Part shown: piece by piece, positions 4,465-30,628 of the stretch
Layout: the number at the start of each line of letters is the position of its first letter
How positions within the stretch are numbered: the stretch's first letter is position 1
Sequence record: MK817115.1
Source of the DNA: Escherichia phage vB_EcoM_phAPEC6
Strand: one strand, 5' to 3'
Length of the DNA stretch: 64,000 nucleotides
The notes under the pieces: model-generated
What the model saw: the letters and a program-made list of their open reading frames with translations, nothing else
What the model was told of the DNA's origin: nothing
Databases searched by the model: none
Program-made: the position numbers and the translations under genes

Positions 4465-4499
4465 ATAACAAGTCCTCAATTTTGTTTAGGAAGATATAA

Positions 4500-4528
4500 A
4501 TAATATAGTACTTAAACACTTAAGTCAA
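4500..4528 (-). promoter_or_regulatory. sigma70-like promoter (-35 TTGACT, 17-nt spacer, -10 TATTAT) upstream of 3856..4464
   Basis: Minus-strand reading of 4500-4528. Confidence 0.35.
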
Positions 4529-4689
4529 ACTTTTTCTGTACTTAACTCAAATTTTTAAAAATAAAACTTAAGGTGTACAGTTTATAACAGATCATATCAT
4601 ACCACTGATGTTTTGTCAACTAGTTCATGGTGCATCTGATGTAAAAAACAAATATATTTCATACTTATATTTAAAAAAGGAAATAAAAT

Positions 4690-8944: not shown

Positions 8945-9293
8945 ATTTCAATTTATCATCAACATAATTCAAATCAACTTTAATCATCGGAGCATGGGAA
9001 CGTATAGACAGTGTTTCCATAAAGTACTGATTAAGTTTGTATGTATGGAAAAGATGAATATCTCGTTTCAACACCACCATTACTTCCCCGAACAGATCAC
9101 AGAGTTCAACTTCAGTGTTAGTTGGGTCAAACCCATAACGATTCTTTAATGTACGTGGTTCTTTATTTCGATAATAATGCACAGCTTTATTACTATTCAC
9201 TAACAAGTGATGATATGCATTACTATAAACTGAGCAAATAACTCGGCTTGGATAATTGGTATATTCTGGTAGTTCAAAATAAATTAATGACAC
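8910..9293 (-). CDS. hypothetical protein
   Basis: ORF track. Confidence 0.45.
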   Translation of the reverse strand: MSLIYFELPEYTNYPSRVICSVYSNAYHHLLVNSNKAVHYYRNKEPRTLKNRYGFDPTNTEVELCDLFGEVMVVLKRDIHLFHTYKLNQYFMETLSIRSHAPMIKVDLNYVDDKLKYDFINSLVYLE

Positions 9294-21026: not shown

Positions 21027-21672
21027 TGTACTGATGCCTAAAATTAGTTTTTGGATTATTGTTCATAGTACTAATAAAATCAAATTTAACATTCTCTTGA
21101 ATATATTTTTTAACACTATCTTTAAATTTAATAGTACTGAAGTCTAAATCTAGATGTTCATACAATACCGGATGACAAAACTCATGTGTACGCAACGCTG
21201 GCATGGTATCCTTAATGTATTGCACAGTGTTAATCATTGCATTGTATTCCGGCATAGCACGCATCATCATTAGCTGAAAGTGTTCTTCCTCTGACATTGA
21301 CTCATCCAAATCAATAACGACTTCATCATTTTTAGAGTCATAAACTTTAATGGTACTCTTGGTTGGATCAAGCATAGCCCACTCTGGATACAGGCATGTT
21401 TTCCAAAAAGGATTATTGCACTGAAACATACTAATGAGATTTTGATCTTTATCAAAAATAGCAAATCCAAGATCCGAACTTGGTTGTACTTCACATACAC
21501 AAATATCGTAAGACGAGTCTTCAGTACTGAGTGAACCAACTACATTTGATATATGTGAATATGGAGTTTCTCTTGACTCCAACTGAAATGTACTTTCAAT
21601 TCGATTGATTTGTGGATGTAATGTAATTACACCCCTTAGTACATATAAAATTCTATCTAAATCTTTAATCAA
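20983..21672 (-). CDS. hypothetical protein, divergent EE-FQ family member
   Basis: SEEEHFQLMMM. Confidence 0.45.
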   Translation of the reverse strand: MIKDLDRILYVLRGVITLHPQINRIESTFQLESRETPYSHISNVVGSLSTEDSSYDICVCEVQPSSDLGFAIFDKDQNLISMFQCNNPFWKTCLYPEWAMLDPTKSTIKVYDSKNDEVVIDLDESMSEEEHFQLMMMRAMPEYNAMINTVQYIKDTMPALRTHEFCHPVLYEHLDLDFSTIKFKDSVKKYIQENVKFDFISTMNNNPKTNFRHQYNESLSNGRDTSWWK

Positions 21673-25413: not shown

Positions 25414-25423
25414 ATGTAACCTC

Positions 25424-25735
25424 TTATAAATTCACCAACTTCACAACTTTAATCTCGATAAATCCCCTATCGGTTATTTCAAGAAATTCAACATGGATAA
25501 TCCCATTGTATGATTTAACTCCAGAGAACTCGAATATATCATTTCCGTCGATAAAAGTACTGTAATTCTTTTTTATATATTCACCTACTGAATCTAAGTA
25601 CTCAATATATAAATCAATAAATGGTTGTTCTTTGTATGGGTTATGTGAACCTATTTTGTTACTAACAAGGTATACATCATACAAATCATATAGGATCTTA
25701 TAAGTGAATTGTATATCATTTAAATTTAATCCCAA
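25424..25735 (-). CDS. small helix+beta family protein (family C, DIQFTYK subgroup)
   Basis: LNDIQFTYKILYDLY. Confidence 0.5.
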   Translation of the reverse strand: MGLNLNDIQFTYKILYDLYDVYLVSNKIGSHNPYKEQPFIDLYIEYLDSVGEYIKKNYSTFIDGNDIFEFSGVKSYNGIIHVEFLEITDRGFIEIKVVKLVNL

Positions 25736-27481: not shown

Positions 27482-28015
27482 TTATTTCCTCATGTATTTT
27501 ATAACGTCTTCAAATAATTGTATTTTTAAGTCCTCGTCATTTCCAGGTAAAAACTCACGAAAACTATCAAAATCTTCATTTTTTGCGAAGTTACGCATTT
27601 GTGTTGAGCTATATTGACTTACATTACGGTCAATACCTGCCTGAATTGCTTTTATACTACAAAAATTATACAACTTACCATTGTACATGTCAAGAGTTTT
27701 TTGAAAAGAATCAATACGGTCAGAACCACAAATGAAAAGAACATCTAAGTACTTTCCATCCAGTTCTCTCATTATATCAAATAGATTGTCTTCTGTGTAG
27801 ATGTTCTCTTGCACTGAAGGATAGAATCCCTCTGTATAATACATTTTTAGTTCAGGTGGGAGTGGGTTTTTTATATTGTCAGTACTGGTGCTTAGATATA
27901 TTTTTAAATCAGCATTGTACTGTTCTTGTAATGTTTTGGCCTTTTCAAAAACTAAACCATGTCCACGATGTACAGGATTAATACGACCAAACGTTAATAC
28001 ACATGTTTCTTTCAT
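27482..28015 (-). CDS. cytidylyltransferase-like nucleotidyltransferase (NMN/NaMN adenylyltransferase-like)
   Basis: FGRINPVHRGH (HxGH) and SQYSSTQMR (ISSTxxR-like) motifs. Confidence 0.5.
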   Translation of the reverse strand: MKETCVLTFGRINPVHRGHGLVFEKAKTLQEQYNADLKIYLSTSTDNIKNPLPPELKMYYTEGFYPSVQENIYTEDNLFDIMRELDGKYLDVLFICGSDRIDSFQKTLDMYNGKLYNFCSIKAIQAGIDRNVSQYSSTQMRNFAKNEDFDSFREFLPGNDEDLKIQLFEDVIKYMRK

Positions 28016-28549: not shown

Positions 28550-29170
28550 TTAGAGACAGTTGTGTACTATCTTATCAAAAGTACTACTGTCAATGTTATA
28601 TTCATATAAAAATTTAAAATGTGAACCGTAACGCATCATCAGATTAAACTCTTCTTCAGTATTGAACTTGTAATCATGAATAGTCTCAGGGGTACATTTT
28701 AAACCCAAGAACTCTATAATTTCAGATGTTACATCATATCCTGAATTGAAGTATTTAACCCAAACACATTTTCCTTGTGGGTTGTATTTTCTATATTCTC
28801 CTTCTAGTTCTCCTTTAATAATATGAGCCTTAACACTTATTGAATTATTACTATATCTTTCTTCAAAATAATTACCATACTGGGCTTTTGATATTGTTGG
28901 TTTTTGAGTAGGAAGTAATTTAACTGAAGTCACTTCAATTCCATTTTGTAATTCCTTTATATAAGAAATGCATCCTTTTTCTTTAATAACCACATATCCA
29001 GTAAAGATATCTTCGTCTTGTGATTGATTAATGCAATCATCAAAATTCAAAGTTTTATAAGTAACAGTTTTTTCTTTTCTAATAAATGCCATCATTATTC
29101 CTATGGAAACATCAATGAATATACGTGACGTTGATTGCATCAACATCAGTAGAATTATCATGCTACGCAT
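28550..29170 (-). CDS. hypothetical protein (possible MORN-like repeats)
   Basis: ORF track; GYVVIKEKG / GEYRKYNPQGKCVWVKYFNSGY; N-terminus probably over-extended. Confidence 0.4.
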   Translation of the reverse strand: MRSMIILLMLMQSTSRIFIDVSIGIMMAFIRKEKTVTYKTLNFDDCINQSQDEDIFTGYVVIKEKGCISYIKELQNGIEVTSVKLLPTQKPTISKAQYGNYFEERYSNNSISVKAHIIKGELEGEYRKYNPQGKCVWVKYFNSGYDVTSEIIEFLGLKCTPETIHDYKFNTEEEFNLMMRYGSHFKFLYEYNIDSSTFDKIVHNCL

Positions 29171-29708
29171 GTCTAATTCTACAAGTACTATTTTCTTTTA
29201 ATTAATATTGACGGGGTTTGCTTGAGCATATTTCATCCCCCCGCAGGGGAAAGAACAAAAAAATTTGACGCTGGTGGCCTTCACATAGTTCATATCACGA
29301 ATTCTCTTACGAGACGAAAGCGGGTTGCTCTGTTTCTCTCTATCGCGGTTCTTGTAGCAACGGTCGTCGGTCTTAAACATCCCGACACATAATACAAATA
29401 CCATATGACCAGTACTTGTATTTGATTTCACAAAATTTGGACGCAACTATATTGTATAATTCCGACCGCATATTTCTTATGAAATCTCCCTTAGATAATT
29501 GGTAAGGTGCGATCCTTATATGTCTATCGAGGAACTCTCTTTATCCTATTGGAGTTCTTTATACAGCCGCATTGCCGTGAGTGGTTCAAACTATGCCATC
29601 ATCTAACGGGTTTCATCTGCTGTTCGTACTGAAAGGACTACTCATCTACCCTCTACATTTTCGAGTGGATTAGGCTTTTAATCATTTCCTTATGGGAACC
29701 TTTCAGGA
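29171..29708. other. GC-rich non-coding island; candidate structured RNA or regulatory region
   Basis: Hand-counted about 41-50% GC in an otherwise AT-rich window (roughly 35% GC on a 60-nt sample); no convincing ORF; 8-bp inverted repeat CTGAAAGG (29629-29636) / CCTTTCAG (29699-29706). Confidence 0.3.
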
Positions 29709-29745
29709 TTAAAAAAAGGTGACTAACATATTATGTTGTCACCTT
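29709..29745 (-). terminator. rho-independent terminator downstream of 29774..30628
   Basis: AAGGTGAC-(AACAT-ATT-ATGTT)-GTCACCTT hairpin followed by TTTTTTT on minus strand. Confidence 0.65.
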
Positions 29746-29773
29746 ATATTATATCATTAACTTATCATTTGTC

Positions 29774-30628
29774 TCAGTTATATTCGGTTTTTTCTGTGAA
29801 ATTTGTTAGTATATCAACACTAAAACTTCGAATAACCTCAATCCTGCTTGGCATGAAACGATGTTTATTTTTAATATACAACTCATCATCTTCAATAAAA
29901 GACGTAAAAATAAATGTCATATCTTCACGTGGAATTTGTAAAATATCACACATTTCATTTGCCGATGCTACTGGTGAATCGTTGTAGTACTGAGAGTATG
30001 CACTAGATTGGCGACCGATTATAATAGAATTTCTGATTAGAAAATTACTACAGTACTGAAAATCTTTGTAGTACTTTTCAATAATGTACGGCATAAGTGC
30101 TTCTTTCACGTCTTCATAACCATTAGTACTATCAATTGCTATACAGTAATCTTCACGTTCTTTTTTCTCATGATGGTAATCATAAACATACTCAAAGAAT
30201 GAATTTTTATTTAATGAATCATTTAAACCAACTGACCCACTATAGTATGATTTTCTATCATTCATTCGATCATCTGGGCATGATGCATACATAGAAGTGT
30301 CATGTGATGATGTACCAATATAAATTTTCTTAGTAATATGATTATACGCTATGTAATCATAATCTTGAACTCCAGTCAGCATTAACTGGAACATTAAATC
30401 ATCAGGAACATCAATTAACGGGTACTCAAACTTCGAATATCTACTGCGGCAGAAGTTCTTTTCAAATGCTCGGTATGCGATAAAATCTTTTAGATTTTTA
30501 CAAGATTCATGCTCATGAGCACTACTGCTACGTACATTGACATTAGTCGATGTGCAATATCCATCCGAATCTTCGGTGAAGTTACCAGCATAATCCTTAT
30601 TGTAGTCAACGATTAGATAAAGTTTCAT
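29774..30628 (-). CDS. hypothetical protein
   Basis: Start set at ATG 30628 (MKLYLIV); track start 30661 would run through the upstream terminator. Confidence 0.5.
   Translation of the reverse strand: MKLYLIVDYNKDYAGNFTEDSDGYCTSTNVNVRSSSAHEHESCKNLKDFIAYRAFEKNFCRSRYSKFEYPLIDVPDDLMFQLMLTGVQDYDYIAYNHITKKIYIGTSSHDTSMYASCPDDRMNDRKSYYSGSVGLNDSLNKNSFFEYVYDYHHEKKEREDYCIAIDSTNGYEDVKEALMPYIIEKYYKDFQYCSNFLIRNSIIIGRQSSAYSQYYNDSPVASANEMCDILQIPREDMTFIFTSFIEDDELYIKNKHRFMPSRIEVIRSFSVDILTNFTEKTEYN

Follow-up and report, generated by a model that had tools for sequence, protein, structure and literature searches.

A predicted structured non-coding RNA of a new family in an intergenic gap of Rak2-like jumbo phages and in small Enterobacterales islands

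What occupies positions 29171-29708 of a 64,000-nucleotide (nt) stretch of Escherichia phage vB_EcoM_phAPEC6 (record MK817115.1; the whole stretch, 64 kb, is called the window below), where no convincing gene is found? A preliminary description had proposed a candidate structured RNA other than a transfer RNA (tRNA) at this place, and the comparative analysis reported here supports this strongly. With a probability of roughly 0.85-0.9, the gap is an independently transcribed, structured non-coding RNA (ncRNA) gene of a new family, encoded on the minus strand and provided with its own promoter. Two of the marks expected of structured RNA genes in general were found, namely compensatory pairing beyond that of controls and a promoter and strand of the element's own. 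The family is detectable in two settings only, Rak2-like jumbo phages and small islands of Enterobacterales. The RNA is on the minus strand of the stretch first described, and it reaches past both ends. The 538 nt are 100% identical, in reverse complement, to positions 192810-193347 of the record of Escherichia phage 121Q, a Rak2-like jumbo phage of the genus Asteriusvirus (348.5 kb), where they lie between 121Q_415 and 121Q_416 and carry no annotation, either in 121Q or in most relatives. The positions of all features are collected in Table 1.

The comparison of folding across homologues, which had been proposed as a check, was made with alignment A2 (33 distinct diverged copies) and with a larger set of 49 copies less than 97% identical, which includes copies from bacterial islands. 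Controls were obtained by sliding the 3' partners by 1-3 columns, and 500 shuffles served as a second control. RNAalifold predicted 75 pairs from the 33 copies, 49 of them with compensatory changes. With the 7 bp of pseudoknot 1, which join a hairpin loop to a distal strand, added to the prediction, 81 pairs were counted in the same copies: standard pairs filled 97.2% of 2654 cells (37-44% in the slid controls), changes on both sides occurred in 56 pairs (16-26 in the slid controls) and the covariation score was 0.53 (control, 0.08); the observed pairing and covariation values were reached in none of the 500 shuffles. In the 49-copy set, 95.4% of cells were paired and 61 of 83 pairs showed double changes. 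Cells with G-U (211) far outnumbered those with A-C (17), and the RNA therefore corresponds to the minus strand of the window.

Three pseudoknot-type helices were recognized. In pseudoknot 1, all seven pairs showed changes on both sides, and 99.6% and 99.7% of cells were paired in the 33- and 49-copy sets, respectively; each of the paralogues in 121Q has its own matched sequence here (UCAUAU, UUGCAU, UCGAAU and UUGUAU). Pseudoknot 2 (GUUGC/GCAAC) emerged from a covariation scan and was paired in 100% of cells of the 49 copies, with double changes in three pairs. The third helix joins CUGAAAGG in the leader to CCUUUCAG in the loop of hairpin P4; it has at least 7 base pairs (bp) in 23 of the 33 copies and keeps a constant position while using 12 distinct helix sequence pairs of at least 6 bp. 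Its two strands had been noticed from the letters as an 8-bp inverted repeat enclosing 62 nt, which is now seen to be a conserved, covarying helix. Likewise, a short GC hairpin that had been pointed out, CCCCCCGCAGGGG, reads on the minus strand as the nearly invariant G-rich hairpin CCCCUGCGGGGGG, the arms of which show C-G to U-G changes. Of a candidate helix that would close the molecule (GAUGAG/CUCGUC), only the invariant UGA/UCA portion holds. Since many unpaired bases are invariant and since three pseudoknots and about 20 helices are present, the RNA appears to act through its fold.

At the 3' side, the hairpins in 29126..29182 gave a fold z-score of -3.6. The homologous terminal 3' hairpin (AAAUUC, stem, loop, stem) covaries in other phage and island copies, with an A.G to G.A swap and U.G pairs. 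Because this covarying hairpin lies beyond the core, the RNA probably starts near 29741 (or at the latest at 29708) and ends near 29130; the predicted length is 480 nt or more, and probably close to 600 nt. Short direct repeats are found in the 3' part, namely CGUCAR, present twice, and loops of the ACGAAGUGA type. A hairpin module (AAAUUUUG - UACAAUAUAG..CGUC - CAAAAUUU) was also seen at one of two sites, depending on the paralogue (A2 columns 295-330 and 455-495); copy C of 121Q carries it at both sites, and the module resembles a movable peripheral element.

Upstream of the RNA, the pattern TGrrAyr, 14-18 nt, TAyAmT was present in 79 of 89 distinct copies (shuffled mean, 2.0) and an extended -10 element in 82 of 89 (shuffled mean, 2.4), the motifs lying 36-108 nt before the conserved CCUGAUCC. 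The promoter of the window copy reads TGAGACA-N13-TGATATAAT, and TGAAACA/G, TGGGACA and TGAAATG occur as -35 variants across the family. When the strict pattern was applied to the 121Q genome, 18 matches were obtained on the coding strand and none on the other (0.55 expected per strand); they precede the primase, exonuclease, topoisomerase II and sigma-factor genes, and RNA copies A, B and D. This promoter class matches the divergent RpoD-like 'TGAAACG' promoter of phage CBB, in which TGAAACG replaces TTGACA at -35, about 16-17 nt before TATAAT, and which is tied to DNA-synthesis genes (PMC5259590). Three more matches to the strict pattern (TGrrAyr, spacer, TGnTAyAmT) were seen on the minus strand of the window, at about 19805, 16194 and 13957.

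A strong terminator had been placed at 29709..29745, with the candidate RNA immediately downstream of it. The hairpin and its U7 are real and have the form of an intrinsic terminator (GC-containing stem, U7 directly after); they were missed by the consensus scan because of a bulge, and orthologous copies from other genera keep the hairpin, with compensatory changes (alignment A1). Its position is what differs from the first account: the hairpin sits between the promoter of the RNA and the leader, a part needed for the fold, and the RNA is therefore not simply downstream of a transcription stop. The hairpin may be a terminator for gene 415, an attenuator or a 5' stem, and a transcription start site inside the stem may also be considered.

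Constraint on the element exceeds that on its neighbours. In relatives with 87-88% identity to the window over 2151 nt, identity rises to about 96% within the 538 nt; this leaves about 85% for the flanking genes, and the non-coding stretch therefore evolves several times more slowly than they do. Homologues at about 70% identity were detected by BLASTN in Mimasvirus (GAP32, CBB, XbC2), Eneladusvirus (Serratia phage BF, Yersinia phage fHe-Yen9-04) and jumbo phages of Erwinia, Salmonella and Klebsiella, and weakly in RaK2; every Rak2-like genus examined had them, with 2-6 matching places per record. The order of genes around the window copy (cytidylyltransferase, dam methylase, hypothetical gene, gap, another hypothetical gene) is kept across genera.

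Further phage copies were sought by scanning viral contigs for motifs and then applying nhmmer, which gave full-length homologues (about 460 columns) at several loci per phage genome. A scan of the whole 121Q genome returned exactly four copies (A to D), all on the same strand; no second copy was found in the 64-kb window, and the other three 121Q copies map outside it. Twelve genomes or large contigs held 2-5 copies each, all co-oriented within a genome, and the element was intergenic in every genome examined. The paralogues of 121Q are 63-77% identical to one another, and the paralogue types are common to several genera, which indicates that the duplications are old. In genomes of the Eneladusvirus/Mimasvirus type, an ADP-ribosylglycohydrolase gene was observed about 120-500 nt after one paralogue type of the RNA. 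DNA-pattern matches in smaller contigs (28 loci in viral contigs and 25 of 32 in genome contigs) were rejected as chance occurrences, because neither nhmmer nor the covariance model supported them.

About 60 further homologues were obtained when bacterial genomes and metagenomes were scanned for motifs and the matches were passed through nhmmer. Chromosomal copies were found in Enterobacter chinensis, Silvania hatchlandensis, Serratia and an Enterobacteriaceae isolate, and others in metagenome-assembled genomes of Buttiauxella and Enterobacteriaceae. They reside in small islands of Enterobacterales (about 8-12 kb), one RNA copy in each. The usual order is an integrase, the RNA, a convergent cI-like S24 repressor, a Ner-like regulator (HTH_35), a 286-aa (amino acid) membrane protein, an LprI-like protein and a small resolvase, followed by variable defence cargo that includes KwaB of Kiwa, DarT with ADP-ribosylglycohydrolase, and a GajB-like helicase. 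The integrase is exchanged between islands, being a large serine recombinase in some and a tyrosine integrase in others, and insertion was seen in ppdD (interrupted, next to hofB), next to ffs and next to thiM. In Escherichia coli LR-29-1, the RNA is present in full length (E=7e-122) within an island of 10.7 kb flanked by ffs, which encodes the signal recognition particle RNA, and by ybaA; only 2 of 5426 complete E. coli genomes contain it. Unlike in most islands, no cI-like or Ner-like gene was identified in this one, which also has an integrase disrupted by IS3 and a gene set with DUF4326, DUF488 and dual-OB domains.

No virion structural genes were found in the 8-15 kb of island sequence examined, and no replication or packaging genes were recognized in the islands examined. 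In gene content they agree with satellites, having an integrase and a repressor switch without a full set of virion genes; they are thus described here as satellite-like, with putative helper dependence. Protein comparison revealed no backbone protein common to islands and phages, and the RNA with its promoter type is the only element that they share. The sole protein match between the two, ADP-ribosylglycohydrolase, was considered as a shared partner protein and rejected, because at the island locus it is a host yegU-type gene next to thiM and the match is incidental.

The surroundings of the copies bear on whether the element could be a cis-regulatory leader or attenuator of the operon downstream (121Q_416, dam methylase, cytidylyltransferase). 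At the window copy, no terminator separates the RNA from gene 416, and the promoter-proximal terminator-like hairpin would fit such a role. The neighbours of the other paralogues are unrelated, and 480-600 nt with three pseudoknots far exceeds known leaders. As copy D runs antisense to the genes on either side of it and the island copies converge on the cI-like gene, a leader function is disfavoured, and we consider it very improbable.

That the stretch is instead a decayed or unusual protein gene, an intron or another selfish insert that lacks a function as RNA has a negligible probability. An ORF (open reading frame) of 82 aa is present in the window copy (29198-29446), and genes for HNH endonucleases occur elsewhere in the 121Q genome. 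The ORF, already described as atypical, is not conserved in the 33 homologues; among these no ORF is conserved in frame, the longest (31-89 aa) varying in strand and position, and frame-breaking indels are seen in alignment A2. A small peptide starting at GGGGGGAUGAAA was ruled out, as the orthologues shift frame. The constant intergenic position of the element and a constraint stronger than that on the flanking genes also argue against this alternative, and no intron, ribozyme or other Rfam model matches.

In agreement with the first reading of the sequence, which saw no canonical tRNA, ARAGORN reported no tRNA or transfer-messenger RNA (tmRNA) genes in the 64-kb window. A check against known families had also been proposed, large ornate phage RNAs and group I introns included, and no family matched. 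At the gathering score, Rfam 15 (with GOLLD, ROOL, OLE, HEARO, RNase P, tmRNA, group I/II introns, pRNA and 6S among its models) gave no matches in the window. Under permissive settings the best match inside the RNA had E=3.1, to an unrelated small nucleolar RNA model, and the best of the scanned stretch had E=0.5 and fell on the upstream hairpin; on 11 paralogue loci nothing was matched inside the element. The absence of Rfam matches places the RNA in a new family, distinct from known large phage RNAs and introns. No description of it was found in the literature on 121Q, PBECO4, RaK2, GAP32 and CBB, on large RNAs, or in a jumbo-phage review. PA5oct, a distant relative infecting Pseudomonas, has four ncRNAs defined by RNA-seq, which show no relationship to this family or among themselves: nhmmer against them gave E=1.3 and E=17 only, and the covariance model of the core found nothing. 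The pRNA of phi29 is likewise a structured, phage-encoded RNA with covarying loop-loop pairing, and it acts in a DNA-handling machine; it differs in being single-copy and 120-174 nt long, and its Rfam model fails to match the present RNA.

In general character the RNA resembles ROOL and GOLLD, which are ncRNAs measuring about 0.6-0.8 kb and rich in helices and pseudoknots, occur on phages or mobile elements, were found by comparative genomics and have equally unexplained roles. Their structures were solved by cryo-electron microscopy, and they form homo-oligomers, as does OLE (PMC12286853). By analogy with their cages, the present RNA could assemble with itself into a large RNA-only architecture, the paralogue-specific pseudoknot sequences serving as intermolecular contacts. 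Its size of about 600 nt, its ornate fold and its association with phages and mobile elements would suit this, and the matched pseudoknot 1 sequences would stop co-expressed paralogues from cross-pairing. Covariation, on the other hand, cannot separate intra- from intermolecular pairing, and no sequence or structure similarity to ROOL or GOLLD was detectable. The sources also differ (Firmicutes, rumen and lake for ROOL and GOLLD, jumbo phages of Enterobacterales here), and so does the genetic arrangement: the present RNA occurs as 2-5 diverged paralogues in a phage genome, each under a promoter of the replication class, and a single copy in the backbone of islands with integrase, cI-like and Ner-like genes. 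Self-assembly of this kind is regarded as improbable.

The CGUCAR repeats offer another indication of function. The first and second motif read CGUCAA/CGUCAA in 20 copies, CGUCAG/CGUCAG in 20, a mixture in 3, and CUUCAA/CUUCAA in RaK2. The variant is identical across all copies assignable to one phage genome: CGUCAA at both sites in the three of three 121Q copies in which the first motif is readable, CGUCAG in the copies of GAP32, CBB, Serratia phage BF and Yersinia, and CUUCAA in RaK2. That the two motifs change together, with one variant per genome, suggests a lineage-specific factor. In the mechanism that we tentatively favour, at rather less than even odds, the RNA would act as a folded molecule, neither message nor leader, and its multi-pseudoknot core would form the scaffold or a catalytic-like core of a ribonucleoprotein. 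A factor specific to the phage lineage would recognize the two concertedly evolving A(U/C)C..CGUCA(G/A) motifs, and the RNA would be produced alongside the DNA-replication genes. The islands would bear a copy under the same type of promoter so as to tap or titrate that factor during infection.

Several points weigh against a separate RNA gene with such a role in trans. A terminator-like hairpin stands between promoter and leader in the window copy and its orthologues, and in about half of the paralogues another hairpin with a U-run lies inside the element. No consistent 3' terminator was found, a terminator-like site being present within 450 nt downstream in only 33 of 88 copies, whereas a defined end is to be expected of a stable RNA acting in trans. 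The start site, the 3' end and the stability of the RNA are inferred from sequence for every family member. The concerted changes in CGUCAR could result from gene conversion between paralogues rather than from a trans factor, the comparison of island and phage proteins gave no candidate partner protein for the RNA, and the position of the element as the sole link between islands and phages fits a role in cis at least as naturally as one in trans.

The main alternative is a cis-acting origin or mobilization module, in which the promoter and the structured transcript would provide a primer or R-loop RNA at each phage origin. The one copy in each island would then let the T4-like replisome of an infecting phage replicate the island, and headful packaging would load the resulting concatemers, so that the islands would be satellites of jumbo phages. 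Phage T4 has several origins per genome, with origin promoters of the middle, replication-linked class, and Kreuzer and Alberts reportedly found in the 1980s that plasmids with a T4 origin were replicated and packaged by T4, which counts in favour of this alternative. ColE1 RNA II, about 550 nt long, needs its correct fold to work. The present element resembles RNA II and T4 oriF/oriG in having a dedicated promoter, a long non-coding transcript (here predicted) and no defined terminator; it differs in showing no detectable homology to them and no identified RNase H or origin site; an antisense regulator was likewise not observed, and the fold is far more elaborate and more conserved. Dispersed, co-oriented copies in every genome examined (2-5 each) would suit a set of origins, as would a promoter of the class found before primase, exonuclease and topoisomerase genes (PMC5259590) and the missing 3' terminator. 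The two CGUCAR motifs and the loops of the ACGAAGUGA type change in concert, like protein-binding iterons.

The islands lend themselves to the same explanation, since they share the element alone with the phages and carry an integrase, a repressor and defence cargo without replication or packaging genes. Gene-poor jumbo-phage satellites of the same make-up were demonstrated experimentally in Pseudomonas in 2025, for islands of the I55 family and phage JPTI55, with the mechanism left open (PMC12595487, PMC12772148); the I55 islands carry an integrase and defence genes and nothing for replication or packaging (PMC12595487). Both groups of islands thus combine an integrase and variable anti-phage cargo with an association with jumbo phages, and neither has recognizable genes for replication, packaging or transfer. 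The I55 islands belong to another family, however, and measure 20-70 kb compared with about 8-12 kb here; the present islands use serine or tyrosine integrases at ppdD, near ffs and near thiM and have a cI-like/Ner-like switch. The former are satellites proven by experiment and the latter putative satellites, and no shared RNA element was reported for I55 and JPTI55 (PMC12595487).

Against an origin in cis stands above all the fold. Conservation extends over almost the whole length and covers three pseudoknots, about 20 helices and 211 G-U pairs, which argues for a folded RNA and not for a hybrid with DNA; known T4 origins need no elaborate RNA fold. The GC content of the element is above that of the genome, and no AT-rich unwinding element is evident. 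The dependence of the islands on a helper is putative, the Pseudomonas islands are of a different family, and the ncRNAs of PA5oct, the sole Pseudomonas jumbo-phage regions compared, are unrelated. An origin or mobilization module in cis is accordingly rated as possible and rather doubtful. Slightly more doubtful again is the broader proposal that the element is the handle by which minimalist defence islands parasitize Rak2-like jumbo phages, through a copied origin or mobilization RNA.

The limits of the gap itself were revised. A GC-rich island had been described, and enrichment was confirmed: GC content is 40.0% in 29171-29708, against a window mean of 32.5% (standard deviation 3.0, 538-nt windows), and is higher in only 8 of 1270 windows of the same size. 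The hand count of 41-50% was too high. The stretch had also been called the longest without genes; it holds the longest run without an ORF of at least 40 aa in the window (29405-29732), but the true intergenic gap, devoid of conserved ORFs, is longer (about 680 nt, approximately 29093-29773), because 121Q_416 as annotated begins too early. Its start is annotated at 29161, and the longest ORF begins at 29170 (minus strand); the gene is over-extended, since the orthologue in Serratia phage BF aligns only from residue 36 of the long ORF. The ribosome-binding site (RBS) and ATG listed in Table 1 are probably the 3' limit of the non-coding region. The surplus codons of the annotated gene, which lie within 29084-29170, overlap the 3' hairpins of the RNA.

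The genes beside the gap lie on the minus strand of the window. One of those further downstream, 121Q_418 (27482-28015, minus strand), is annotated as 'ribonucleotide reductase A (NrdB)'; its orthologues in GAP32, CBB, RaK2, Serratia phage BF and Kaldavass are named cytidylyltransferase and its product has an HxGH-type motif, PVHRGH, typical of nucleotidyltransferases, and the name is therefore probably wrong. Other ORF-poor stretches of 220-340 nt were noted in the window at 25414-25725, 21430-21668, 8945-9283 and 4469-4689. Outside the window, about 2 kb of the 121Q record (135194-137161), within a run of very small ORFs, have no annotated gene; this stretch showed no homology to the RNA family.

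Table 1. Positions of the predicted RNA, its parts and copies, and of the loci compared with it
Feature	Record	Position	Strand	Basis or remark
Promoter: -35-like TGAGACA (29776-29770), extended -10 TGATATAAT (29756-29748)	window	29748..29776	minus	consensus scan 10/12 plus TG extension
Terminator-like hairpin and U7 between promoter and leader, an arrangement of B-type copies only	window	29711..29745	minus	fold: 13 pairs; -17.8 kcal/mol for the 71-nt segment holding the hairpin
Leader AAUCCUGAAAGG, then small hairpin UUCC-CAUAA-GGAA	window	29686..29708	minus	CUGAAAGG is the 5' strand of the pseudoknot-type helix
Leader-P4 loop helix: CUGAAAGG with CCUUUCAG	window	29706-29699 with 29636-29629	minus	
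Conserved core, 479 nt, about 18 helices	window	29203..29681	minus	nhmmer full-length match E=1e-124; alignments A2 and A3
Invariant core blocks CACGGCAAUGCGGC, UAAGGGAG, GAAACAGAGCAACCCGC	window	29579-29566, 29493-29486, 29336-29320	minus	
Pseudoknot 1: hairpin loop GUCAUAU (29409-29403) with AUAUGAA (29295-29289)	window	29289..29409	minus	
Pseudoknot 2: GUUGC (29361-29357) with GCAAC (29328-29324)	window	29324..29361	minus	GCAAC in the loop of hairpin 29340-29316
3' module: CGUCAA 1 (29270-29265), U-run, CCCCUGCGGGGGG (29249-29237), CGUCAA 2 (29213-29208)	window	29208..29270	minus	
3' hairpin GUAGAAUUAGACAUGC-GUA-GCAUGAUAAUUCUAC	window	29182-29149	minus	probable 3' domain of the RNA
3' hairpin (UGAU)GUUGAU-GCA-AUCAAC(GUCA)	window	29148-29126, core 29144-29130	minus	probable 3' domain of the RNA
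Probable true RBS (AGGAA) and start codon ATG (29092) of 121Q_416	window	29084..29102 (RBS and ATG 29102-29092)	minus	orthologue alignment
RNA copy A	121Q	90.3 kb		after sigma-factor gene
RNA copy B	121Q	193 kb		the window copy
RNA copy C	121Q	247.5 kb		
RNA copy D	121Q	326.7 kb		between endonuclease VII and baseplate gene, both on the other strand
RNA paralogue with ADP-ribosylglycohydrolase gene	L044	6897-7730		
RNA paralogue with ADP-ribosylglycohydrolase gene	L031	3258-2416		
RNA paralogue with ADP-ribosylglycohydrolase gene	L023	6582-7457		
RNA paralogue with ADP-ribosylglycohydrolase gene	L017	1036-137		
RNA-bearing island inserted in ppdD	L085	3427-5525		next to hofB
RNA-bearing island of E. 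coli LR-29-1	L173	15753-26647		between ffs and ybaA
PA5oct ncRNAs	L052	1264-1499 and 14952-15402		
PA5oct ncRNA	L054	1066-1669		
PA5oct ncRNA	L053	1117-1735		

Large, intricately folded ncRNAs are rare, and each new class has so far brought unexpected biochemistry. The present RNA is conserved above the level of the surrounding genes, is kept as 2-5 old paralogues in every Rak2-like phage examined, has a promoter of the replication type and is the sole link of these phages to islands in Escherichia, Enterobacter, Serratia, Silvania and Buttiauxella. It is a testable candidate for the means by which islands without replication or packaging genes are copied and packaged, and its phages and hosts are easy to handle genetically. 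Should the element indeed be the handle used by the islands, a mechanism would for the first time be proposed for satellites of jumbo phages, and replication origins would gain a new type, characterized by an RNA that has three pseudoknot-type helices.

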